DNA from: a virus
Reading direction: 5' to 3' (one strand)
UHGV virus genome: UHGV-0217314
DNA length: 38,395 nt
This document shows, piece by piece, positions 617 through 38,295 of this stretch (within the stretch, counting starts at the first letter, position 1; every line of letters begins with the position of its first letter). A program made the translations under genes and the position numbers. The notes beneath the pieces were generated by a model. The model saw nothing but the letters and a program-made list of their open reading frames with translations, was not told the DNA's origin and made no database searches.

Positions 617-1378
617 CTATATCGTCGGATTACTAACTAAACCCATCGCCAGAACTTTATGAAATATGTCCTCTACTAATGCAGCCGGTATATTTGATCG
701 CTCGTTATAGTCTCTACTAAAGCCAGACTTAAACTCAACTTCATTTGGGATAATATCTTTTTTTAGGTCTAAATCTATATTGCTTTTGAATTTAGTAGGT
801 TTTTTAATTGGATAATCATAATTGTTGTAATAAGTGAGATTCTCATAGGGAATCTCAAAGCCTAGAATCTTCTCAATATATTCCCACAAACGGCCATGAG
901 CCGGATTCTCTATGATGTAAACGTTTGGTTGATATCGTTTGATGATTTCAATCGTGTTAAATGCACAAAGCTCGCCATTTATTCGCGTCATTAGTGACTT
1001 TTCTGGCTTGAATTGATACCGATCGTAGTCACTCCTGTATCTGATAGTAAAGCGAGATAAAGGTACTTGCGGCTCAAAGAGTCCATCTCCCTTTTCTTGT
1101 TTCCAACAGGCATTCCCATTATCCATAGCACTTGCCACAGACCAGGATTCACACGGCGGACTTGCAATGATAAGATCTGGATTTGGCAAGCTATCTAAGT
1201 GATCGAATAAAGTATTATCTCCAAACAACCTAGAATAATCTGCTAAGTTCAGATTGATAAAATGATTACTCTTGTTCTTGCGGTCAATTCCAATCGAATA
1301 AATCTCAATATCTTCAAACTTTTTTGCAGCTTTTGAATAACAACCATTTCCGCTGTCGAATAGCGCCCAAACGATCAT
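617..1378 (-). CDS. DNA (cytosine-5) methyltransferase, orphan and phage-encoded (253 aa)
   Basis: Motif I-like LFDSGNGC. PC catalytic motif ASPPCESWSVA (the PCQ-type Cys). The ENP motif (ENV-type, motif VI) appears in IIENPAHGRL. The protein is small, and no restriction endonuclease partner was identified. Confidence 0.7.
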   Translation of the reverse strand: MIVWALFDSGNGCYSKAAKKFEDIEIYSIGIDRKNKSNHFINLNLADYSRLFGDNTLFDHLDSLPNPDLIIASPPCESWSVASAMDNGNACWKQEKGDGLFEPQVPLSRFTIRYRSDYDRYQFKPEKSLMTRINGELCAFNTIEIIKRYQPNVYIIENPAHGRLWEYIEKILGFEIPYENLTYYNNYDYPIKKPTKFKSNIDLDLKKDIIPNEVEFKSGFSRDYNERSNIPAALVEDIFHKVLAMGLVSNPTI

Positions 1379-7200: not shown

Positions 7201-7461
7201 CTAAATTCCTCCGATTTCAATTTTTCTGTAATTTTCGTTCACATAGTCCATGATTTGGTCCTCGTGAACTAGCCCTAAATCAGTTGAGTAGACGGTGTCC
7301 CCTTTGTAAAGTGGTTCGCCCTTCCAATCAGAAGCGATTGGTTTTGGATCGATTTCCGGTTGTTGACGAGCACCTAATGAATCGAAATCATTCATTTTGC
7401 CCCTCCTAAAATTCCCAAAATAGTTTGAATCGTCCATCTGCTTCAATAATGTGATCCACAC
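7201..7461 (-). CDS. Hypothetical protein (86 aa)
   Basis: ORF only. Confidence 0.35.
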   Translation of the reverse strand: MWITLLKQMDDSNYFGNFRRGKMNDFDSLGARQQPEIDPKPIASDWKGEPLYKGDTVYSTDLGLVHEDQIMDYVNENYRKIEIGGI

Positions 7462-7630
7462 CTTCTTCTCGTAGCTGAGCTAAAAAAGTCGGTGTCAATC
7501 CCTTACTTGCTGACGATATACTTGTTCTACCCATTCTTGCGGCAGTCAATACTTCACTAACAATTTTTTCTTGTGCGTTCGTTAGCATAGCGGTGTAAAT
7601 ATCGTCATTCAGTCCAGAAACGGAAATCAT
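7406..7630 (-). CDS. Hypothetical protein (74 aa)
   Basis: ORF only. It overlaps its neighbour, so the start is uncertain. Confidence 0.3.
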   Translation of the reverse strand: MISVSGLNDDIYTAMLTNAQEKIVSEVLTAARMGRTSISSASKGLTPTFLAQLREEGVDHIIEADGRFKLFWEF

Positions 7631-7965
7631 TTGAAATCACCTCGAATGATTTGATTTAAAATATCCGGAATGTCTTGGAGATCGTCTATTACGAATGTAT
7701 GTGTATGTTTAGATGTCTCTTCTTCCTCAATATCAAATAAAGCTTTTAACATCCGATGTTTTGAGCAGTCACAATCTAACTTGATTAATTCTTCTTTTAC
7801 TTTGTTGTACTGTTCGAGAACAGCGATTGCGATAAGAGAATCACTTCCTACTTGTGCGAATCCCATATCACCTATAACATCTAGCGTTGCTAAAGATAAA
7901 CTCACATTTTCTTTCTGACATTCTTTTGCCAGTTCTTCGATTAAGTTTTGAATTTTTTCATTCAT
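7627..7965 (-). CDS. Hypothetical protein (112 aa)
   Basis: ORF, 4-nt overlap coupling. Confidence 0.4.
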   Translation of the reverse strand: MNEKIQNLIEELAKECQKENVSLSLATLDVIGDMGFAQVGSDSLIAIAVLEQYNKVKEELIKLDCDCSKHRMLKALFDIEEEETSKHTHTFVIDDLQDIPDILNQIIRGDFK

Positions 7966-8144
7966 TTTGTTATACTCCTTTTGTGTAATGTATTCATTGT
8001 TCGTCTACACTAGCTGGAACTGGTGTAGGCTTTTTTTATATCTCTCATCTCTTGATCTCCCTCAGACGTCTGCCACATTTCTTGCAATATGGACCATTCC
8101 ACGGCTCGCATTTTTTCAATTCCGTAGCATTGATAAGCGTTTTT

Positions 8145-8369
8145 CTATTGCAGCTCTTGCATTGGAACTGATGAGGCTTTTCTTCTATCAGCATTTTCTA
8201 TTCCCCTCCTTAACCGTCTTCTATAAGCAATATCGTCATACTTTATTAGCCACCACATGATTGATACTGGTAATGCAATAAGTGCCCAATCTGGTAATTG
8301 TCGACTACTAAACCAAACACCTAGAAAGAATATGGTGATCAAGAATGCTGATCTTCGTAAACTTTTCAT
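8145..8369 (-). CDS. Small membrane protein (74 aa)
   Basis: Two hydrophobic segments (FLITIFFLGVWF and LIALPVSIMWWLI) followed by a basic tail. Confidence 0.35.
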   Translation of the reverse strand: MKSLRRSAFLITIFFLGVWFSSRQLPDWALIALPVSIMWWLIKYDDIAYRRRLRRGIENADRRKASSVPMQELQ

Positions 8370-8444
8370 AAAATCACTCCTACCTGTTGTATAATCTCCT
8401 TATCAGTCAGTGGTCGGCTGAAATAATCAAAAGGAGATGATTAT

Positions 8445-8645
8445 TTGTTTGTTGATGCAAAAGAGTTTGCTTTAGCTGTTGTTTCTTCCTCTAATCCAAA
8501 TTTGACAATCCAAGAGAAATTTGAATTATACGAAGCAGCTTATTCGCTTGCCGATTCAAAAATTAGGCAAGTAAATGACGAGCGGAAGAAAAAACAACCT
8601 TCGGTTAAAGATAAAATTAACGCTGCAAAACAGTTGGGGCTGTAG
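8445..8645 (+). CDS. Small plus-strand protein (66 aa) embedded in the minus-strand early region
   Basis: TTG start with RBS AAGGAG 8 nt upstream. A TATAAT element lies at 8391-8396. It is convergent with, and overlaps, the 3' end of 8617..8835. Confidence 0.35.
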   Translation: MFVDAKEFALAVVSSSNPNLTIQEKFELYEAAYSLADSKIRQVNDERKKKQPSVKDKINAAKQLGL

Positions 8646-12196: not shown

Positions 12197-12943
12197 ATGG
12201 GACTGTTTGATAAGGTAAAAGACAAAGCTACAAAAGCCATGTCAGAACAAATAGATAATTTGAAATCCAAAGATATTGCTGGTAAAAACATTGGTAATAT
12301 GATGAAGCCAATTGAAAATGCAGCTAGTACCGCTCTTTCTAATCATCAAGAAAACAAGAAAGAACAAAAGATTGTCTTGCCTGTGAAAAAACCATTTATG
12401 AAACAATTAGATTCGATTACTTTAAGACGAGATATTAATGATTATTTTTACGTTTCCAAAAAATATGATCCAAATGCAACTAAATATCAATTTGAGCGTT
12501 TTGAGTGGAATGGGAGCACTATAACCCAAGAAACAACAACTACAGGTAATATTAAAACAAAAGGTAGGACAGGACAAACTATTGCTGGTACGGCACTATT
12601 AGGACCAGCAGGAGCAATTATTGGTAGTGCTGGAAAACGAAAAAGTAAGGTTGATACTAAATCAACCACAACTATAAAAGAAGTTGGCAGTGAAGGGAAA
12701 ATATTTTTACGAAATTTAGAAAATGGCTCTATAGAAGAAATAAAAGTTTTTCTTGAGTCGGCACAAGCGAGTAACCTAGAACGCTTTATTGCAAATGTTG
12801 ATTATACAGAAGATACTACTGTTGAAAAATCAAATGAACATTCTTCTACACAACGATTAAAAGAATTAAAAGAATTACTTGATTTGGGGATTATTACACA
12901 AGAAGAATTTGAGTTGAAGAAAAAAGAGATCTTAGAACTATAA
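12197..12943 (+). CDS. SHOCT-domain protein with a glycine-zipper segment (248 aa); moron
   Basis: C-terminal LKELKELLDLGIITQEEFELKKKEIL is a SHOCT-type motif. GTALLGPAGAIIGSAG is a glycine zipper. N-terminal MGLFDKVKDKA. The gene has its own promoter and RBS. Confidence 0.55.
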   Translation: MGLFDKVKDKATKAMSEQIDNLKSKDIAGKNIGNMMKPIENAASTALSNHQENKKEQKIVLPVKKPFMKQLDSITLRRDINDYFYVSKKYDPNATKYQFERFEWNGSTITQETTTTGNIKTKGRTGQTIAGTALLGPAGAIIGSAGKRKSKVDTKSTTTIKEVGSEGKIFLRNLENGSIEEIKVFLESAQASNLERFIANVDYTEDTTVEKSNEHSSTQRLKELKELLDLGIITQEEFELKKKEILEL

Positions 12944-20951: not shown

Positions 20952-23900
20952 TTAGTTAAAATAATCGTTTTTATTTTTATCACGTGCTTCTTTACGTTTA
21001 ACTGTCGTGTAAATCTTATCTCCAACAATTTCATTGTGGACATAGATTTCATCCTTTTTGAGTTCTGATTCTGCGATATCTCGATCCATTTCATCAGTCA
21101 GGGTACTGATATTTTTATTAGTGAAAGTAGTATCACCAACCATAACTGCTTCTGCTTGATACTGCTGCGCTTTGATAATGGATCCGAACTCGTTAGCTTG
21201 TTTGGCTACAAATCCAAACATTGACTGCATCCCTAGCCCAAGCCCTTTACCTAGCATTTCCCCCATCCAAGCAGTGACTCTGGAAGGTGAATGGATATCC
21301 AATGCCCTTTGAAGCGTTCTTCGTACATTAGCAGCGATACTATTTGCTACACTATAAATATATCCCGACGAACTCGAAAGCCCACTAGCAAGCCCAGAAC
21401 CAGCGTAATAACCGATACTGTTCATTTGGTATCGCAGACTTGAAAAGGCTGATACTATACGCGAAGATGCGCTTCTTGCTGTAGAAACCATCTTATTCAT
21501 TCCATTGCTAAAGGCAGAAGCCATTTGAGAAGTGCTGCTGCTAATTGAACGAGTTGCTTGGCTCATCGACTGCGTGCTTGCTTTACTTACGCTAGAAAAA
21601 CCTTTGTTAACCGTACTTGATACTCTTTGCATTGCACTTGAAGCAGTTTGCTCCATGTTCTGCATAGACTGACCCACATTACGAGCCATTGAAGTGATCT
21701 CTTTTGTCGAATTCTGATTAATTCCAGAAGTGCTACTGTTTACATTATTTTGCATCGTATTCGCAGCACTTGTAGCGTTCTGTGTTGCTGTATTCATGTT
21801 GCTAGTAACGCTAGATTGTAGACTACCTAAAGAGCTTGTTACATCACTGGCCATCGCAGAATAGTCACTAGTCGTATTAGATTTTGCATTCTTAGCGGCT
21901 TTTGTTGCATCCACCGAAGCAATGCTGCTTAAATCTGATACTGAGTTTTGCATGCTAGACATTGATTTACTAACGCTAGAGTTTGCTGTACTAAAACTGC
22001 TTGCGACTGATTGAGTAGCTGACTGTGTATCAGAATCCATTTCATCGCCTTTGGATTTTGATTTGCCGGTGATTGTATCCCACAAACTACCAAATCCATT
22101 CTTGATTCCATCCCATGCGCCTTTTAAAACTCCAGGGATAGCTTCTAGAACACCGCTCGCAAGAGATTTAACAATATCCCAACCAGCAGCTAAAATACTA
22201 GGCAACATTTGAATGATAGTTGCTACCAATGACATGATAATTTGAATACCACTTGAAATGATATTAGGTAGATTTTGTACTATACCACTAACTAAAGCTT
22301 GGATAATCTGAACCGCTGCTTGTAAGATCATTGGTAAATTTTGCACAATGAAATTACATAAGGCTTGAACGATTTGAACTGCACCGTTCAACAATTGAGG
22401 AATGTTAGCCATCAATCCATTGATTAAAGTCAAGATCGCATTCAAAGCTACTGGGAGTAACTGAGGTAACAATTGTGTTAATCCATTAATTAAACTTAAT
22501 AGAATTTGAATACCGGTCTGAATAATCTGTGGTAGATTTGAAACAATATTTCCAACAAAAGCTTCTAGAATTTGTTGCACTGAACTAACGATTTGCGGAA
22601 TGTTTTCTACAATACCGTTGATTAAGCTTAACAATAAATTCATACCCATGACAATTAGCTGAGGTAACGCGCTAGCTAAAGAAGTCAATATAGTAGTAAT
22701 GATGGTCAATGCTGAACTAATTAATGATGGTAAATTTTGTGCTACTCCTCCAACAAGTGAACCTATTATATCAACACCAGCTTGCACAATAACAGGCAAC
22801 ATTGTTGCAATCGTATTGGCCAACTTACTAATTAATTGAGTTCCGCTTGTAATTAGTTGCGGTAGCTGTGAAGTAATCCCTTTGACAAAATTTGAAATAA
22901 CTTCGGGTCCCTTTGTTGTGACCATTTTTAACAGTTGATCAATTTGATCCCCGAATTGATTGTTTACTAAACCAAGCCCTGCAACAACTAATCCTAGTAT
23001 TGCGGCTGGTCCTATAGATGCTAGTGCAACTTGCATAATCGTTGCCATCGCAGAAGTCATACCGCCCAAGGCGCCCATTCCAACCGTTGCCGCAGACGAA
23101 AGTCCACCGCCAATTTTTGGAAAAAGTCCAATTAAACCACTGACACCACCGGAAACTATTCCAAATGCTGAACTTAAAGGGCCGGATAAAATACCGGAAA
23201 ATTTAATGAACCCGCCTGTCAGCTTTGATAACATTGGTAAAGCGCCACTCAACGTCAACGCGCCACCAAGCAAAGCAACAACTGGTAAAATTCTGGAGAT
23301 AGCACTCTGCATGTTCTTCAGCGCATCACCTGACAACTTTGTCCCATTGATAAAATGATCCAAAATTGGGATCACACTGTCGATGGCTTTGTTAATCTTA
23401 TCCATGTTGAAATCGCCGATTTTATCAGTAATTTTACTGATAGCATCGATTCCGACTTGCGAAAGCTTATCAAAAGAAGGCTGTAGCTTGTTCGTCAACG
23501 TCTCACGTAACCCGTCCATAGCTTGACCGACAGTTTTATATTCTGTTGCCATTTTGCTGAATGTTTTATTTGTACCAACTTTAGTAATAGCATCAAAGAA
23601 ATCCTGTGTTTTAATCGTACCGTCTTGAACAGCCGTAACCATTTCAGACGTTGACATTCCCATTTGTTTCGCAACAGCAGCGATCCCGGCAGGTGTTTGT
23701 TCTAACATTAACTTAAAGTCTTGCCATTGAACCATTGGCTTCGCAGCCATTTGAGTAGCTTGTTGACTTAAAGTCGTCATAGCTTGTGTTGGATTTTCCG
23801 CTGCGGCTGCAAGTCCACCAAATCCCATAACTAATTTATCCGTGTTTTTAATACCAACTGCCGCCAGCTGACTATATGTCGTAGCCATTTCGGAAGCTGA

Positions 23901-24635
23901 ATAGATTGTTTGAGTTGCGAAGTCTTGTAATTCTTTTTTTACACTAGCAATTTCCTTTTTCCCCATGCCAATGTTTTCCATATTGGCATTGAACGTTTTC
24001 CACGTTGCAGATCCTTCATTGAGATCTCCAACTAATCCTGTAATAGCACCCGAGATCATTGATATTCCCTTTTGTGCTATTGCATAGGCTGCACCAATTC
24101 CAGCAACTTTTTTGATTAATCCGCTAGTGGCATCTGTTACATCATTTGTTTTAGATCCCATTTTGCTTAGTGCAGATGCTGCTTTCGTTCCAGCTTTGTT
24201 GAAAGCATTAGTTAACCCACTACCAACCTTGGTACCAATTGAGGTTGTAGTTTTCACTATCCCATTCAAGCCTTTTGCAACTAGGCTCGAAGTTTCGCTT
24301 GCAGCTTTTGAGACAACTCCAAAGCCTTTTTTTATGGGCTGAGGAATTTTTTCACCGATAGATGCGATTACTCGTTGAATTTGACCCCCTGCAGCACTAA
24401 AAGGAGCAACCATGCTTGTTTTTAATCCGTTTAATTTTGAAGGAATAGTAGAGCTTAATTGTCCCATAATACTTCCAACCCTTGAAACAATGCTATTTGT
24501 ACTATTAGTCATGCTAGACTGCACTTTACTCATTGCCGAAGTAGTGCTACTAACGACCTCTGACATTGCCTTTTTATAGTCTCCAGTATCTGCTCCAATC
24601 AAAGCCTTAATGGATCCGGTAATGCTTCCTGACAT
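20952..24635 (-). CDS. Tape measure protein
   Basis: 1227 aa with Gly/Ala/Ser-rich helical repeats and hydrophobic segments. Positioned after the tail chaperones. Confidence 0.85.
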   Translation of the reverse strand: MSGSITGSIKALIGADTGDYKKAMSEVVSSTTSAMSKVQSSMTNSTNSIVSRVGSIMGQLSSTIPSKLNGLKTSMVAPFSAAGGQIQRVIASIGEKIPQPIKKGFGVVSKAASETSSLVAKGLNGIVKTTTSIGTKVGSGLTNAFNKAGTKAASALSKMGSKTNDVTDATSGLIKKVAGIGAAYAIAQKGISMISGAITGLVGDLNEGSATWKTFNANMENIGMGKKEIASVKKELQDFATQTIYSASEMATTYSQLAAVGIKNTDKLVMGFGGLAAAAENPTQAMTTLSQQATQMAAKPMVQWQDFKLMLEQTPAGIAAVAKQMGMSTSEMVTAVQDGTIKTQDFFDAITKVGTNKTFSKMATEYKTVGQAMDGLRETLTNKLQPSFDKLSQVGIDAISKITDKIGDFNMDKINKAIDSVIPILDHFINGTKLSGDALKNMQSAISRILPVVALLGGALTLSGALPMLSKLTGGFIKFSGILSGPLSSAFGIVSGGVSGLIGLFPKIGGGLSSAATVGMGALGGMTSAMATIMQVALASIGPAAILGLVVAGLGLVNNQFGDQIDQLLKMVTTKGPEVISNFVKGITSQLPQLITSGTQLISKLANTIATMLPVIVQAGVDIIGSLVGGVAQNLPSLISSALTIITTILTSLASALPQLIVMGMNLLLSLINGIVENIPQIVSSVQQILEAFVGNIVSNLPQIIQTGIQILLSLINGLTQLLPQLLPVALNAILTLINGLMANIPQLLNGAVQIVQALCNFIVQNLPMILQAAVQIIQALVSGIVQNLPNIISSGIQIIMSLVATIIQMLPSILAAGWDIVKSLASGVLEAIPGVLKGAWDGIKNGFGSLWDTITGKSKSKGDEMDSDTQSATQSVASSFSTANSSVSKSMSSMQNSVSDLSSIASVDATKAAKNAKSNTTSDYSAMASDVTSSLGSLQSSVTSNMNTATQNATSAANTMQNNVNSSTSGINQNSTKEITSMARNVGQSMQNMEQTASSAMQRVSSTVNKGFSSVSKASTQSMSQATRSISSSTSQMASAFSNGMNKMVSTARSASSRIVSAFSSLRYQMNSIGYYAGSGLASGLSSSSGYIYSVANSIAANVRRTLQRALDIHSPSRVTAWMGEMLGKGLGLGMQSMFGFVAKQANEFGSIIKAQQYQAEAVMVGDTTFTNKNISTLTDEMDRDIAESELKKDEIYVHNEIVGDKIYTTVKRKEARDKNKNDYFN

Positions 24636-24951: not shown

Positions 24952-25425
24952 CTATGAGATCTCTTTCGTGATTCTTTCCGCTAATTTCTTCAACTCGTCC
25001 GCTTGAAGCTTCGACTCTTCCGTTTCTCGAGCCGCTATAACTTTGTGAGCTTTCTCCAGATTCTCCTTGTATTTGCGGATCTTGCTCACGAAAAAACCTG
25101 ATGCTAACATTTCTTCTTTCAGATCAGCAAAAATTTGATTATAGGCTTCCTCTTCACCCATTCCGCTATTAACAAGATTGTCTGTATAATTTTGTACAGC
25201 TTCTAAAACATCATTTTCGGTAAAATTCTTATCGACAAGTTGTAACAAGTTGACTAAAGCATCATCTTCTTTCTCTAGAACTTGAACAAAAAGAATCCCG
25301 GCACCATCGTTTTGAGAATTTCCATCCGCATCTTTAGTTCCCAATTTTTTATTGGCTTTAAAATTTAAAGCGTAGTTGAATTTGATATTGCAATCTTTGT
25401 TTTTTACTTTGATATCAAAAGACAT
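24952..25425 (-). CDS. Tail assembly chaperone (gpG-like)
   Basis: N-terminal MSFDIKVKNKDCNIKFNYALNFKANKKLG is typical of tail assembly chaperones. Positioned upstream of the TMP. Confidence 0.65.
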   Translation of the reverse strand: MSFDIKVKNKDCNIKFNYALNFKANKKLGTKDADGNSQNDGAGILFVQVLEKEDDALVNLLQLVDKNFTENDVLEAVQNYTDNLVNSGMGEEEAYNQIFADLKEEMLASGFFVSKIRKYKENLEKAHKVIAARETEESKLQADELKKLAERITKEIS

Positions 25426-25458
25426 TTAACCATTCCTCCTAAATAAAAAAGAGCCAGT

Positions 25459-26343
25459 CTAACGACTAACTCTTTTAATTGCTTCCACATATTTTGCTGA
25501 CGCTTTTCTTTTATTAACAAAAGATAGATCATCTTCAAATGGTGATGTATCAACGTACTTGCCTTTAAAGAATAGATCGCGATCTTTTTCGGTTACTCCT
25601 GCATTATGAAGAATTTTTACTTGTTTACATTTCTCAATTGAATCCGTAGAAAAGCAAAAAGATAATTCTTCGTGGATTTTAGGTCCAACATTGAAATACA
25701 TCATATTCCAAAGTTGCGCCCACATTTCAGCAGTCCATTTTTGAATGTTGCTATTCACTTTTTTAAAGTATTGATAAAGACGATTTGAATCGAAATAAAC
25801 TTTTTTCCAATACTCCGCTCTAGGATTCTTTATAACCCACTGTGCACCACCAGAATTAAAATTAATGGTTTCCAACGATTCCACTGAAACATTTACGATC
25901 TCAGCCATACCTTTCAAAATAGATTCTCCATTTTCACAACTGCGAATATAATCAAGATTTAGGTAGTGGTTGCAATCACTGCAATACCAAACATCTTCTT
26001 TTGAAGTCATTTTACGCAAATCAATCTTTTGATTGAAAATGACATCCGAATCAATATAAACATACCGCTCTTTTTCACGTTTAGGATCTTCTTTCAAGTA
26101 TTGCCACCACAGATAAGGCTTGATAGAAGGAATATAACCTTTATCCTCTCTATCATCTCTATATACGTGAACTTCAACATTGTATTTATCAGCTAAATAA
26201 GCAGGAATTGTTGAATCATGTTCGCTAAAAAGCAGTACAATATCATTGATACCGAACGACTTCAAGTTAGTTAAACAAACTTCAAGTTCCCACTTGAAAC
26301 GATTGATAGCAGGTTGACAAAGAATATATTTCATTTTTCCCAC
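25459..26343 (-). CDS. Putative GT-A-like glycosyltransferase (DxD motif) inserted between the major tail protein and the tail chaperones
   Basis: YVYIDSDVIF is a DxD-like motif sitting about 100 residues in. The fold and family could not be verified from sequence alone. Confidence 0.4.
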   Translation of the reverse strand: MGKMKYILCQPAINRFKWELEVCLTNLKSFGINDIVLLFSEHDSTIPAYLADKYNVEVHVYRDDREDKGYIPSIKPYLWWQYLKEDPKREKERYVYIDSDVIFNQKIDLRKMTSKEDVWYCSDCNHYLNLDYIRSCENGESILKGMAEIVNVSVESLETINFNSGGAQWVIKNPRAEYWKKVYFDSNRLYQYFKKVNSNIQKWTAEMWAQLWNMMYFNVGPKIHEELSFCFSTDSIEKCKQVKILHNAGVTEKDRDLFFKGKYVDTSPFEDDLSFVNKRKASAKYVEAIKRVSR

Positions 26344-26967
26344 CTACTCCTGCGTCGTTGTGGTGGTAGTTGCTTGTGTTGTGGTCGTAGTCGTTTGAAT
26401 ATCATCGTAGTCTCCAGTTGTTTCACCTGGGTTTTGGTAATCATACAGTGCTTCAATTGCTGAAATATCGTCATTTGATAATGGGAATTTACCTTCTTGA
26501 AGTTTTCCGATAATGTTTAATGTGTAAGAAGCTTCCACAAGATCATCACCGTCCGCAATCTCCACATCATCGGGCATACCGTAGCCGAATTCCGCTGGAT
26601 ATAGCTTTACATCAGTTTCTCCTTCGGCTTCTTCAGCAACAGAATCATCAATTTCCACACGCCAAACTTTTACAGACGTTCCATTTTTCTTTGCATCTTT
26701 GACAACTTTGATCGCTTCGTCTTTCGGTACAAAATATTGTGTCAAATCAATCGAATGCTCGTCAGTTGATTTGATGATAATACGCCCCATTTTAGTTTGC
26801 TCATCAATATTTTCTCCGCCATATGTTACGCCCCCTTCTGTTTGAAAAGCAGGCAATAGCGCAGGTGAGCCAATTTCTGCAGAAACTGATTGGATAAAAT
26901 ACCAGACTTTCTTAGCAGTCAATGCTTTACCTGTAGTTTTTTTGACGCCATTATTTACAATAGCCAT
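26344..26967 (-). CDS. Major tail protein with a C-terminal poly-Thr tail
   Basis: Position and size. The C-terminus is TTTTTQATTTTTTQE. Confidence 0.6.
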   Translation of the reverse strand: MAIVNNGVKKTTGKALTAKKVWYFIQSVSAEIGSPALLPAFQTEGGVTYGGENIDEQTKMGRIIIKSTDEHSIDLTQYFVPKDEAIKVVKDAKKNGTSVKVWRVEIDDSVAEEAEGETDVKLYPAEFGYGMPDDVEIADGDDLVEASYTLNIIGKLQEGKFPLSNDDISAIEALYDYQNPGETTGDYDDIQTTTTTTQATTTTTTQE

Positions 26968-28321: not shown

Positions 28322-29281
28322 TTATCCTTCGGTCGTTGTAGTCGTTGTAGTTGGCGCTACGGCTTCGATAGTTGCTTCTACTACGCCAGCAGGAATTTCT
28401 GGGAACAAGACTAATGCATTCATGAATAGTGATTCGTAAGTTGCATTGCGCAATGTACGTCCGCGAGTAGCAGAAATGAACCCTGTTTCATCTGTGAAAT
28501 CTACAAAGATATCACCTAGATCGCTAGCTTTCATATCCAAATAAGCTAATACGAGATTGTCAACCGCAGTTGAATAAACTTTACCTTCTGGAATTGCGTT
28601 TAATACAACAACGTTAGTAGCTCCCAAGAAGTTTTTCAGCAACGTCATTCCAAAAACATTCGATGCATCAGCTAAGACTTTTGTGTCACCAAGATATGTC
28701 GCTGCATCCATTGGATTAATAAATGAAACGAATTGTGCACCGTCAAACTCTTCAAATGTGCTTAATTTTCCCCAAGATTGAGCCAATGCTTTTTGCAATC
28801 CATCTGCGGTAATTTTTGTTGGCGCTGTGCCTAAAAAGTCAACAAATTTTGTTTTAATTCCACCTTGGATTTGACGTAATAATTTATTATCAGCTTGATC
28901 AATTGCTAATGAGGCTCCATGACGAGCAATCGATTCAGCAGTCACAGCACGACGCCATTTGTTAAACGTTACTTGATAAGACTTATCTTTTGCACGAGTA
29001 ACTTTAGATAGAGGAATGTCTTCACCTTCTGCGACATTTCCAGATTTTAAATCAGTCGTCCATTTGTACATTTGGATTTTCATATCACTCGATAATGGTT
29101 CTAAACGTGTAACGCCCAACAGTTCAAGTAATTCTTTGATACCGGCTTCAAATCGGTTAACAAAATCGATCGACTTGATTTCCCCAAGATCGTCCATGGT
29201 TGTTAATCCATCTTCTGCAGCAAAAAATTGTAGTTGCATTTTCATGAATCGTTTTTTATTTGTTTTTGACATGTTTTTCAT
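28322..29281 (-). CDS. Major capsid protein with an L27-like N-terminal motif and a C-terminal poly-Thr tail
   Basis: Size and position after the scaffold. N-terminal ...FMKMQLQFFAAEDG. C-terminal APTTTTTTTEG. Strong RBS AGGAGG. Confidence 0.8.
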   Translation of the reverse strand: MKNMSKTNKKRFMKMQLQFFAAEDGLTTMDDLGEIKSIDFVNRFEAGIKELLELLGVTRLEPLSSDMKIQMYKWTTDLKSGNVAEGEDIPLSKVTRAKDKSYQVTFNKWRRAVTAESIARHGASLAIDQADNKLLRQIQGGIKTKFVDFLGTAPTKITADGLQKALAQSWGKLSTFEEFDGAQFVSFINPMDAATYLGDTKVLADASNVFGMTLLKNFLGATNVVVLNAIPEGKVYSTAVDNLVLAYLDMKASDLGDIFVDFTDETGFISATRGRTLRNATYESLFMNALVLFPEIPAGVVEATIEAVAPTTTTTTTEG

Positions 29282-29293
29282 TTGTTGTTCCTC

Positions 29294-29911
29294 CTAAAAT
29301 AGTTCTCTATTTGCAGCAATCATTCGTTGACGTTCAGTAGTATCTTTAATCGCCATAATTTCTGCTTTAGTCATTTGTCCACCTGCAGTACCAACTTTCG
29401 TTTTGTTTTTCGAAGCCAATCGTTCATTGACCTTTGCTTCTACTGCCTTATCCCATTCTGCACGGAAAGCCTTAACATCCTCTAGGATTTCTTCAGCAGT
29501 ATCGCCAGCAATCCGATGCGCAAAATCAGCTGGTATTCCTTGAGCCGTTAGTTGTTTGCCTTTTTCAACATACAATTGCTCTTTCCGGAATTCTTCTTTT
29601 TCTTTCTCGAACTCCTCTTTTTCCTTTTGAATCAAGGCTTTTTGACGATCTTCTTCAGAAAGCTTCGCCAATCTAGCAGCTTCATTTTTTTGTTCTTCTA
29701 ATTCTTTTTGCCATCTTGATTTCTTGTTTTTAATGATAGAATCAACATCTTTGTCATCTTTAAAACCAAATTTTTCCTTAATGGCTGCCAATTGTTCTTC
29801 ATCTAATTCATCCACGTTGAAATTTGGTGTTGGATCTCCCGGGTCGTTTCCTCCACCATCTTCAGCGAAAAATTGTAGATTCAATGGCATAAATAACTTC
29901 TTTTTCATCAT
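29294..29911 (-). CDS. Scaffolding protein
   Basis: Helical, charged, coiled-coil-rich protein immediately upstream of the MCP. N-terminal MPLNLQFFAEDGGG. Confidence 0.7.
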   Translation of the reverse strand: MMKKKLFMPLNLQFFAEDGGGNDPGDPTPNFNVDELDEEQLAAIKEKFGFKDDKDVDSIIKNKKSRWQKELEEQKNEAARLAKLSEEDRQKALIQKEKEEFEKEKEEFRKEQLYVEKGKQLTAQGIPADFAHRIAGDTAEEILEDVKAFRAEWDKAVEAKVNERLASKNKTKVGTAGGQMTKAEIMAIKDTTERQRMIAANRELF

Positions 29912-37537: not shown

Positions 37538-37723
37538 TTGCCAAAAATGGGGATTGCTGTTATATTATTGGTGAGGATATAGATCTTACTCCTCGCCAAG
37601 CCTGAATCTGGATCATTCGTGATCGAAGTGGGAATTGAGTGCACCCACGTTCCCCCGCGGGCGGGTTAGCCTAGCGTTTGTCTGCATGGGACGGTATCCA
37701 TGCTTTGCACTCTTATTTTTTTT
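37538..37723 (+). ncRNA. Candidate structured leader / small RNA. A promoter (TTGCCA-17-TATATT) is followed by a GC-rich multi-hairpin RNA of about 150 nt that ends in a hairpin with a U-rich stretch downstream.
   Basis: -35 at 37538-37543 and -10 at 37561-37566. Hairpins GGTGAGGA...TCCTCGCC, GTGGG...CCCAC, the palindrome CCCGCGGG, and GCATGG-gacggtat-CCATGC. A T-run lies about 12 nt downstream of the last hairpin. Confidence 0.35.
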
Positions 37724-37743
37724 GTACATTTTTGGAGGTTAGA

Positions 37744-38295
37744 ATGAATACAGATTTCTCTCTCACTTATAATCAGTATCTTTCTAACTTTGATGGAAAG
37801 ATGGCTATCCTAACAACAAAGTTTGAACCTTTAGATAGGTTTTATATTAAGTTCGATATAAAGCAATTACCTCACTTATTGGGTCTTCAATACATCTACA
37901 CCGATCCGCCCCAAACATTATGCGAAATGCTCTGCAACAAGGACATAACTTACGAAAAACTGCAGCGTCATCAAAATTTCGTGAAAATTAAAGATCGTAT
38001 CACATTGTTTCCGTATATACTAAATATTTTTTTAGAAGACTATAATGCCTCGGTGATATATGTCTCTGAGCAAGATCGTCATGGATCTTCAATGAAGTTA
38101 GATATCGTGTTTGCCCATCCACATAAAAACAAATATCTGAACTTAGGACTGAGAGAAACGAGAGAATCAATTTATTCACCCGTAACTTTCTATGTCTTTA
38201 AGAAAGGGCGGCATCCAGTTATGCCTTCTTCAAAAAGGGCAAAGGTTGAAACAATAGAATTTATCAACCCAACTAGACAAATACAACTCTTTTAA
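37744..38295 (+). CDS. Hypothetical plus-strand moron protein (184 aa). Start refined from the ORF-track start at 37678.
   Basis: RBS GGAGG lies 6 nt upstream of the ATG at 37744. It is on the opposite strand to the surrounding genes and has its own terminator. Confidence 0.55.
   Translation: MNTDFSLTYNQYLSNFDGKMAILTTKFEPLDRFYIKFDIKQLPHLLGLQYIYTDPPQTLCEMLCNKDITYEKLQRHQNFVKIKDRITLFPYILNIFLEDYNASVIYVSEQDRHGSSMKLDIVFAHPHKNKYLNLGLRETRESIYSPVTFYVFKKGRHPVMPSSKRAKVETIEFINPTRQIQLF

Follow-up and report, generated by a model that had tools for sequence, protein, structure and literature searches.

A candidate virion O-glycosylation system in Firmicutes phages formed by a GT8-like glycosyltransferase and poly-threonine C-terminal tags

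The virus genome UHGV-0217314 (38,395 nucleotides; this whole stretch of DNA is called the window below) is the complete genome of a temperate siphovirus that encodes an integrase, a CI-like repressor, RecT, a terminase, a portal protein and a GH25 lysin, among others. Its late genes are arranged on the minus strand in the order scaffold, major capsid protein (MCP), four head-tail genes, major tail protein (MTP), a predicted glycosyltransferase (GT), tail assembly chaperone and tape measure. The MCP and the MTP both end in a run of threonines, here called the poly-Thr tag, and the comparison of many related loci suggests, as the most likely and best explanation, that the GT and the tags form a one-enzyme "tag plus writer" system for the O-glycosylation of virions. 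The genes and tags concerned are the following:

25459..26334, minus strand: GT gene (phrog_4417), 291 aa from the ATG at 26334; the mechanically called open reading frame (ORF) extends to a GTG at 26343 and has 294 aa.
26344..26967, minus strand: major tail (tube) protein, MTP, 207 aa; phrog_238 (E 9e-50) and Pfam Phage_tail_2.
26347..26394, minus strand: C-terminal tag of the MTP, TTTTTTQATTTTTTQE, with 12 Thr; predicted acceptor.
28322..29281, minus strand: major capsid protein, MCP, 319 aa; phrog_544 (E 2e-70).
28325..28351, minus strand: C-terminal tag of the MCP, TTTTTTTEG, with 7 Thr; predicted acceptor.

A first-pass annotation of the window had reported a 294-aa ORF at 25459..26343 on the minus strand that carries the motif YVYIDSDVIF and lies directly downstream of the MTP gene, had placed the phage among those of Firmicutes (Lactobacillales-like), and had drawn attention to poly-Thr ends on the MCP and MTP. 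The ORF was found as described, with the motif at residues 94-103 and its start one base past the MTP stop codon, and the closest protein relatives came from Enterococcus gallinarum; the phage is of the Enterococcus type. The length of 294 aa applies to the ORF; the product itself is probably 291 aa, because the ATG at 26334 (M4 of the ORF, MKYIL...) is the common alignment start of all homologues and has the sequence AGGTGG 5 nt upstream. The MTP ends in ...IQTTTTTTQATTTTTTQE and the MCP in ...VAPTTTTTTTEG, and a check of every ORF of 90 aa or more, in all six frames of the window, showed these two alone with a Ser/Thr run of at least four in their last 25 residues. In both genes the threonines of the tag are encoded by a mixture of ACG, ACT, ACC and ACA codons, which rules out that the runs are slippage-prone DNA repeats and argues that they were selected at the protein level. 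A second sugar enzyme was looked for among the ORFs of the window and none was found.

The structure of the GT protein was predicted with AlphaFold2 (AF2), giving a model with a predicted local distance difference test score (pLDDT) of 95.4 and a predicted template modelling score (pTM) of 0.92. The model consists of a single Rossmann-like alpha/beta/alpha domain with a central mixed beta-sheet. Foldseek searches against the PDB and BFVD agreed with a GT-A fold, with glycogenin as the top match, and the nearest structures were protein and glycan transferases, not DNA glucosyltransferases. The identity to GT8 enzymes was just 9-15%, and approximately 60-80 of the 291 residues fell outside the core that aligned to them. 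Two elements of the predicted active site could be placed in the model:

26035..26064, minus strand: YVYIDSDVIF, residues 94-103, a strand followed by the DxD motif (D98, D100); predicted Mn2+ and uridine diphosphate (UDP)-sugar site.
25606..25608, minus strand: His246 in KILHNAG, candidate third metal ligand, compare KVVHFLG in the GT8 enzyme glycogenin.

Y96, D98 and D100 were invariant in 35 homologues with 53-99% identity, and D98-S-D100 directly follows strand E93-96 in the model, which is the location, after beta-4, of the DxD that binds the divalent metal and the diphosphate in GT-A enzymes. H246, A248 and G249 were also invariant among these homologues, and H246 ends strand E244-246; from its motif and position we infer that it is equivalent to the metal-binding histidine of GT8 enzymes. 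Sequence searches gave no comparable link. Pfam contained no match at E ≤ 1 save a spurious zinc-finger, with PF01501 (Glyco_transf_8) absent even at E = 1; NCBIfam gave no match; the PDB gave no match by sequence, either with the single sequence (phmmer) or with a 35-sequence profile; and megablast of the GT region against the phage collection gave no match. An alignment with hhalign to glycogenin-1, with a sequence identical to PDB 3t7m, was not significant (probability 0.3%), and the sole block of this non-significant alignment set YVYIDSDVIF on CVFMDADTLV of glycogenin. For the GT assignment made in the first-pass annotation, the GT-A fold and the DxD motif after the strand thus speak in its favor, while a match to any GT-family profile in Pfam or NCBIfam is missing. 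Judged from the predicted structure, the GT protein is a sequence-orphan GT-A enzyme that is GT8-like at the level of the fold and lies outside Pfam Glyco_transf_8 by sequence, and we regard the GT-A assignment as nearly certain.

The sole family that matched the GT protein was phrog_4417 (E 9.7e-149, residues 4-293 on profile positions 1-292 of 293), which is annotated as "unknown function". The family is large and unusually conserved, with 741 proteins in a 90%-clustered database, 866 clusters at 50% identity, and 53-76% identity across Enterococcus, Lacticaseibacillus, Listeria, Lentibacillus and others. By tblastn, a member was found in 77 deposited phage genomes, where nearly all were labelled "hypothetical protein"; the phages include phiFL1A/2A, VPE25, iLp84, PLE3, Lactococcus CHPC836, 90-kb Mammaliicoccus phages and the L. 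plantarum Herelleviridae Semele, Iacchus and Bromius. Many family members are prophage genes of Gram-positive bacteria, and strictly lytic phages (VPE25, Herelleviridae) carry the family as well. Longer members, many of them at the 50%-cluster level, are fusions of 500-780 aa (P0164, P0168, P0177, P0255) to Glycos_transf_2, Glyco_transf_7C, Methyltransf_24 (N-terminal) or radical-SAM/SPASM domains. These partners are the company expected of a glycan-building enzyme, and give independent support to the GT assignment. Two distant members were found in contigs binned outside Firmicutes: a 45%-identical protein encoded after a 283-aa protein ending in AASTTTTT (L126, binned as Candidatus Saccharimonadales), and a 29% homologue inside a very long ORF of a Bacteroidota metagenome-assembled genome (MAG; L133). 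Either the family extends past Firmicutes or these bins are contaminated.

The co-occurrence of the enzyme and the tag was examined over 213 fetched loci, of which 154 had the GT gene and 59 were scored as lacking it; a locus was counted as tagged when a same-strand ORF had a poly-Thr C-terminal tail by a strict rule. At least one such ORF was present in 149 of the 154 GT loci, and 105 had at least two, compared to four of the 59 GT-less loci, all of which were artefacts (a truncated gene in L132, contig edges in L201 and L207, and a false positive in L188). The association between tail and gene had a Fisher p = 5e-40, uncorrected for relatedness. Among the untailed GT loci, L130, L131 and L133 are tiny contigs or the 29% homologue, and L103 (S. 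aureus) has the tails TSTTTSTTT that the strict rule missed. The apparent exceptions were explained away case by case in this manner, leaving only L097, to which we return below. In a diverse set of 52 GT loci with one genome per species, nearly all that had enough flanking sequence encoded two or three virion proteins with a poly-Thr end on the same strand, typically an HK97-type MCP of 390-400 aa, an MTP of 205-215 aa and, in Bacillaceae, a 105-aa phrog_749 protein. Most of these tagged proteins had no BLAST similarity to the MCP or MTP of the window. The GT gene was always located 0-135 nt downstream of a tagged gene, which was the MTP gene in most lineages and the MCP gene in Lacticaseibacillus, Lactococcus, Anaerorhabdus and one Enterococcus lactis prophage. 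The hosts of the system span Enterococcus, Lacticaseibacillus, halophilic Bacillaceae, Clostridium, Staphylococcus and a Saccharimonadales MAG.

As a matched control, a tail-trimmed profile (A2) of the MTP family of the window was used and retrieved 80 viral loci. In 24 of them the MTP had a poly-Thr tail, and 23 of these 24 carried the GT gene; in the remaining one the contig ends 441 nt upstream of the MTP gene, where that phage type would carry the GT gene. The other 56 MTPs were untailed, and none of these loci had the GT gene. The MCPs in the loci of this family also had a poly-Thr end when the GT gene was present, and in loci without the gene 85-90% identical MCPs ended in, for example, APTVPDDGGAGE. 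When 74 unique MTP cores were placed on a neighbour-joining tree, the tail and the gene each required at least seven parsimony changes, and the two coincided on 72 of 72 evaluable tips. The tree suggests at least seven independent joint gains or losses of tail and enzyme within this single MTP family. Together with the 213-locus comparison, these transitions strongly supported the proposal of the first-pass annotation that the poly-Thr tails are the target of the enzyme.

A comparison with the closest relatives defined the unit that is gained or lost. The features involved are:

25454..26398, minus strand: cassette of 945 bp consisting of the MTP poly-Thr tag and the GT gene, present or absent as a unit by blastn against the relative L165.
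24952..25425, minus strand: tail assembly chaperone gene (Pfam Phage_TAC_12, phrog_183), directly after the MTP gene in cassette-less relatives.
20952..24635, minus strand: tape measure gene.
25447..25476, minus strand: terminator-like hairpin (stem of 13 bp, then a T-run) that spans the GT stop codon and lies at the downstream edge of the cassette; found by a consensus scan only.

The nearest GT-less relative, L165, has an MTP that is 97% identical but has neither the MTP tail nor the GT gene, and its MCP is untailed as well. In a blastn alignment, 87% homology stopped at window position 26399, where the T-run starts, and resumed at 97% at 25453, just past the GT stop codon, with 87 nt in L165 in place of the 945 bp; these breakpoints identify the MTP tag and the GT gene as one cassette. 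In L165 and in two other close GT-less relatives, L139 and L138, the chaperone gene directly follows the MTP gene, which bears out the earlier suggestion that the GT gene was inserted into the usual order of MTP, chaperone and tape measure. Another GT-less relative, L182, has a Big_2 immunoglobulin (Ig)-like domain at the C-terminal position of the tag. By analogy, the tag is likely on the outside of the tail tube, because Big_2 at the same position is an exposed tail-tube decoration in other phages. The putative hairpin at 25447-25476 might attenuate the transcription of the chaperone and tape-measure genes that follow.

The tagged virion proteins fell into 26 families that were not linked by BLAST. 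They include MCPs (phrog_544, phrog_10, phrog_840 and protease-MCP fusions), at least three families of MTPs (phrog_238, 117 and 88), small Ig-like proteins (phrog_14018) and others. The tag consists of a T-run and, as the last residues of the protein, one to six (usually two or three) small ones. Within one phage, these final residues were identical in 40 of 95 protein pairs compared to 6.3% between phages; for example, both the MCP and the MTP of L116 end in ...TTTTTTSGAGA, and in Lacticaseibacillus phages both end in ...SHA. The identical end peptides within a phage are written with different codons, which rules out recent gene conversion as their source. Since the ends match within a phage while the codons differ, the comparison points to selection on a C-terminal recognition peptide and not to recent DNA exchange. 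In the Bacillaceae prophages (L101:7912-8226, L105:7714-8037, L121:7872-8207 and similar), the third tagged protein of approximately 105 aa, which belongs to phrog_749 (unknown function), is encoded right after the MCP and may be a head decoration or connector protein. The myovirus Semele (Herelleviridae; L213:10994-12879) has two small proteins with long tags, (TVKPTTTTTSTTT)x3, encoded directly before the GT gene, one of 168 aa (phrog_21586) and one an Ig-like protein of 115 aa (phrog_14018); this group of genes adjoins a sigma-factor gene among the replication genes, outside the main structural block.

Expression data were available for the lytic phage VPE25, whose GT homologue, SCO93502.1, was transcribed during infection, with spectral counts of approximately 1-18 compared to approximately 1000-1477 for the MCP and 168-314 for the MTP (supplement of PMC11100838). 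The homologue thus reached approximately 1% of the MCP counts, an amount that is enzyme-like and not structural. The VPE25 MTP (SCO93497.1) ends in ATTTDTTTTTTTTTTAGK, and its C-terminal tryptic peptide is VYGATTTDTTTTTTTTTTAGK. A 392-aa protein encoded upstream of the VPE25 MCP has an internal PETTTTTTKKP run approximately 30 residues before its C-terminus.

The mechanism that we propose follows from the comparative results and from the known chemistry of GT8, GT24 and GT6 enzymes. The GT would be a cytoplasmic, metal-dependent and probably retaining GT-A enzyme, made in small amounts from the late operon alongside the virion proteins. D98, D100 and H246 would bind Mn2+ and a UDP-sugar, and the donor would be a nucleotide sugar, most likely a UDP-hexose or UDP-N-acetylhexosamine (UDP-HexNAc) as for the structural neighbours. 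The enzyme would recognise the free C-terminal tag and pass the sugar with retention to Thr hydroxyls, leaving either a single sugar on many threonines or short chains of the kind built by glycogenin. As a rough estimate, 7 Thr on each capsid subunit (approximately 415 per particle) and 12 Thr on each tube subunit (a few hundred) could give several thousand sugars per particle, and O-linked sugars on flexible projections of head and tail would form a mucin-like coat. The tag and the enzyme would then be a portable module of two parts, able to pass from phage to phage and to be attached to unrelated virion proteins. The coat may serve as a hydrophilic shield against proteases, aggregation and non-productive sticking, or as a carbohydrate decoration in place of the Ig-like domains found in relatives. 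Because the hosts range from gut enterococci to halophilic Bacillaceae, a role of a general physical nature is favored over one tied to mammals. Antibody recognition would still be affected, as is reported for phage Che8. In this scheme we infer the catalytic activity, the donor sugar, the tag threonines as acceptor, the number of sugars at each site (one or a short chain) and the biological role. We judge it quite probable that the protein is an active glycosyltransferase with the poly-Thr tags of the MCP and MTP as its acceptors.

Several observations weigh against this interpretation. A literature search found no biochemical evidence for any member of the family, and at the sequence level no link to any CAZy or Pfam GT family was found. 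The equivalence of the DxD motif and His246 to the active-site residues of known enzymes rests on motif and position. VPE25 (L212:6119-7297, 7287-8489) has a 400-aa MCP without a poly-Thr tail, so that the MTP alone is tailed, and L097, the sole remaining exception in the locus comparison, has only the weak tail QTTPATTAG. Physical linkage could also give part of the association with the MTP, since tag and gene are contiguous in the cassette. Linkage fails to explain the MCP tags 2-3 kb away and the other gene orders, and as mere linkage or shared ancestry the co-occurrence was rejected on these grounds and on the 26 carrier families and the at least seven transitions. Finally, most protein-directed GT8 enzymes extend an existing sugar and do not start on Ser or Thr, and a priming enzyme of the host might therefore be needed.

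The last point leads to an alternative in which the tags are indeed modified, but the first sugar comes from an O-glycosyltransferase of the host and is then extended by the phage enzyme, or the phage enzyme transfers a group other than a simple hexose. The hosts are so diverse that a common priming enzyme is unlikely, and glycogenin, the top structural match, itself initiates on a protein hydroxyl. The mobility of a cassette with a single gene also argues for a self-sufficient enzyme, and we consider this alternative improbable. A second alternative is that the GT modifies a polymer of the host envelope (wall or lipoteichoic acid, or cell-wall polysaccharide) or the phage receptor, like the prophage GT-A enzyme TarP of S. 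aureus, for superinfection exclusion or serotype conversion, and that the poly-Thr tails are unrelated flexible linkers. The many family members in Gram-positive prophages would fit such a function, as would the GT8-like enzymes LgtC and WbbM, which build cell-surface glycans, and the GT has neither a signal nor a membrane segment, as is the case for cytoplasmic teichoic-acid glycosyltransferases. However, the gene sits within the late structural operon and not in a lysogeny or moron position, and it is present in the strictly lytic phages VPE25, Semele, Iacchus and Bromius. Modification of a host polymer also leaves unexplained the all-or-none coupling to tags on 26 unrelated families with at least seven joint gains or losses, and the conservation of the tag ends within a phage at the peptide level; we consider it very improbable. 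The idea that the GT glycosylates phage DNA, for instance at a hydroxymethylated base, as a protection against restriction like the T-even glucosyltransferases has in its favor that DNA-acting phage sugar transferases are well known and that a partial C-5 cytosine methylase match puts DNA modification in the repertoire of the window, but no hydroxymethylase or base-hypermodification gene was found among the window ORFs, the GT gene belongs to the virion module and not to the replication genes, among which DNA-modifying enzymes are located, the closest structures are of another kind, and DNA glycosylation offers no account of the coupling to the tags, so that we give it next to no weight.

Returning to the tags as the acceptor, the system can be compared to phage-encoded virion glycosylation in the mycobacteriophage Che8, to which the first-pass annotation had likened it. 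According to papers that cite Freeman et al. 2023, phage GTs in Che8 modify the C-termini of the MCP and the tail-tube protein of a siphovirus, and the glycan coat alters antibody recognition (PMC11256854, PMC13313380, PMC12894461). The window phage likewise encodes a GT, and its poly-Thr tags are candidate C-terminal sites tightly coupled to the enzyme, where in Che8 the C-termini are glycosylated. The enzymes themselves differ: by Pfam, the Che8 proteins are gp108 (GT2 and Methyltransf_24/TylF), gp109 (GT2) and gp110 (GT25); in an hmmsearch with the GT family profile they scored below 0, without detectable relation; and no Mycobacterium phage was named among the 77 tblastn matches, for which 10 genus names were listed. 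The Che8 genes are at the right genome end, approximately 50 kb from the structural genes, whereas the GT gene of the window is directly downstream of a putative substrate gene. The Che8 MCP ends in ...FNKTGS and the MTP in ...EQYSDGS (L214:5051-5872, 7613-8422), without poly-Thr, although the shared terminal GS echoes the concordance of tag ends within Firmicutes phages, and the fusion of GT2 and Methyltransf_24 in gp108 recalls the fusions in the GT family. Three enzymes in Che8 compare to a single GT8-like enzyme in the Firmicutes phages, which goes with a long Thr homopolymer as the tag. The likeness holds as an analogue with a non-homologous enzyme, another tag, another genomic layout and another bacterial phylum, and does not extend to homology.

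The GT8 enzymes glycogenin, LgtC, the Skp1 alpha-galactosyltransferase AgtA, and GlyD and GlyE of serine-rich-repeat adhesin glycosylation are probable neighbours at the level of the fold only, and a C-terminal poly-Thr peptide is not known to be an acceptor of any GT8 enzyme. Among the capsid glycosyltransferases that viruses encode, the A64R protein of chlorovirus PBCV-1 belongs to a eukaryotic giant virus in which several enzymes build atypical N-linked glycans on Vp54, with no terminal tag or tail protein involved. A parallel in position is given by the Ig-like decorations (the lambda gpV C-domain, T4 Hoc, Big_2), which occupy the same C-terminal place and, like the tag, decorate the surface, can be dispensed with, and come and go between phages. 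Ig-like domains are folded and bind carbohydrate, whereas the decoration in the window phage would be a carbohydrate on a disordered tail and would need a dedicated enzyme. In the literature, no description was found of the phrog_4417 family or of virion glycosylation in Firmicutes phages, with subscription journals sparsely covered; papers around L. crispatus M247, PBC2, TP901-1 and VPE25 concern host enzymes or negative glycostains of other phages.

Other features of the window were noted in passing. The N-termini of the MCP (MKMQLQFFA/AEDG, approximately 29215-29245, minus strand) and the scaffold protein (MPLNLQFFA/EDGG, approximately 29860-29890, minus strand) share the sequence LQFFA, which resembles the site cut by the host protease Prp (ribosomal protein L27) in the capsid and scaffold of Staphylococcus phage 80alpha. 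Three accessory genes were noted: one with a fragmentary match to a C-5 cytosine DNA methylase (617-1378, minus strand), one for a protein with a PBECR4 (Barnase/EndoU/RelE-like) nuclease domain (37678-38295, plus strand) and one for a SHOCT-domain protein (12197-12943, plus strand). The SHOCT-domain protein adjoins the integrase and holds the only other TTTT run of the window, which is internal.

The glycosylation of virions by phage enzymes is already known, so far shown for a few mycobacterial phages with unrelated enzymes; the enzyme, the tag and the layout described here differ. We lean towards the combined reading that phrog_4417 is a family of protein O-glycosyltransferases, not recognised as such before, for a minimal and transferable C-terminal tag of (Thr)n and one to six, usually two or three, small residues, that the pair is a mobile cassette, that virion glycosylation is common, and that the pair may become a glyco-tagging tool. 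If this is true, the cassette would have repeatedly made mucin-like glycoproteins out of capsid, tail-tube and decoration proteins that are unrelated to each other, in both siphoviruses and myoviruses of Firmicutes, whether temperate or lytic and whether their hosts live in the gut or in salt lakes, and a large family of "hypothetical" phage proteins would have a function. The near-isogenic relatives with and without the cassette, with MTPs up to 97% identical, provide a natural experiment on a system of one enzyme and a short tag, and the pair could be used for glycosylating arbitrary proteins or engineering phage surfaces. Covalent sugar coats would be widespread in phages of Enterococcus, Lactobacillaceae, Lactococcus, Listeria, Staphylococcus, Clostridium and Bacillaceae, including the model and therapy-candidate phages VPE25 and phiFL. 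In Che8, so far the only system studied in this respect, glycan coats change how antibodies recognise the phage and how it is cleared; this bears on phage therapy, on phages in mucus and dairy, and on the reading of virion mass spectrometry and cryo-electron microscopy (cryo-EM). Virion glycosylation would then be common in Gram-positive phages, therapy-relevant phages of Enterococcus and Staphylococcus among them, and no curiosity of actinobacteriophages.

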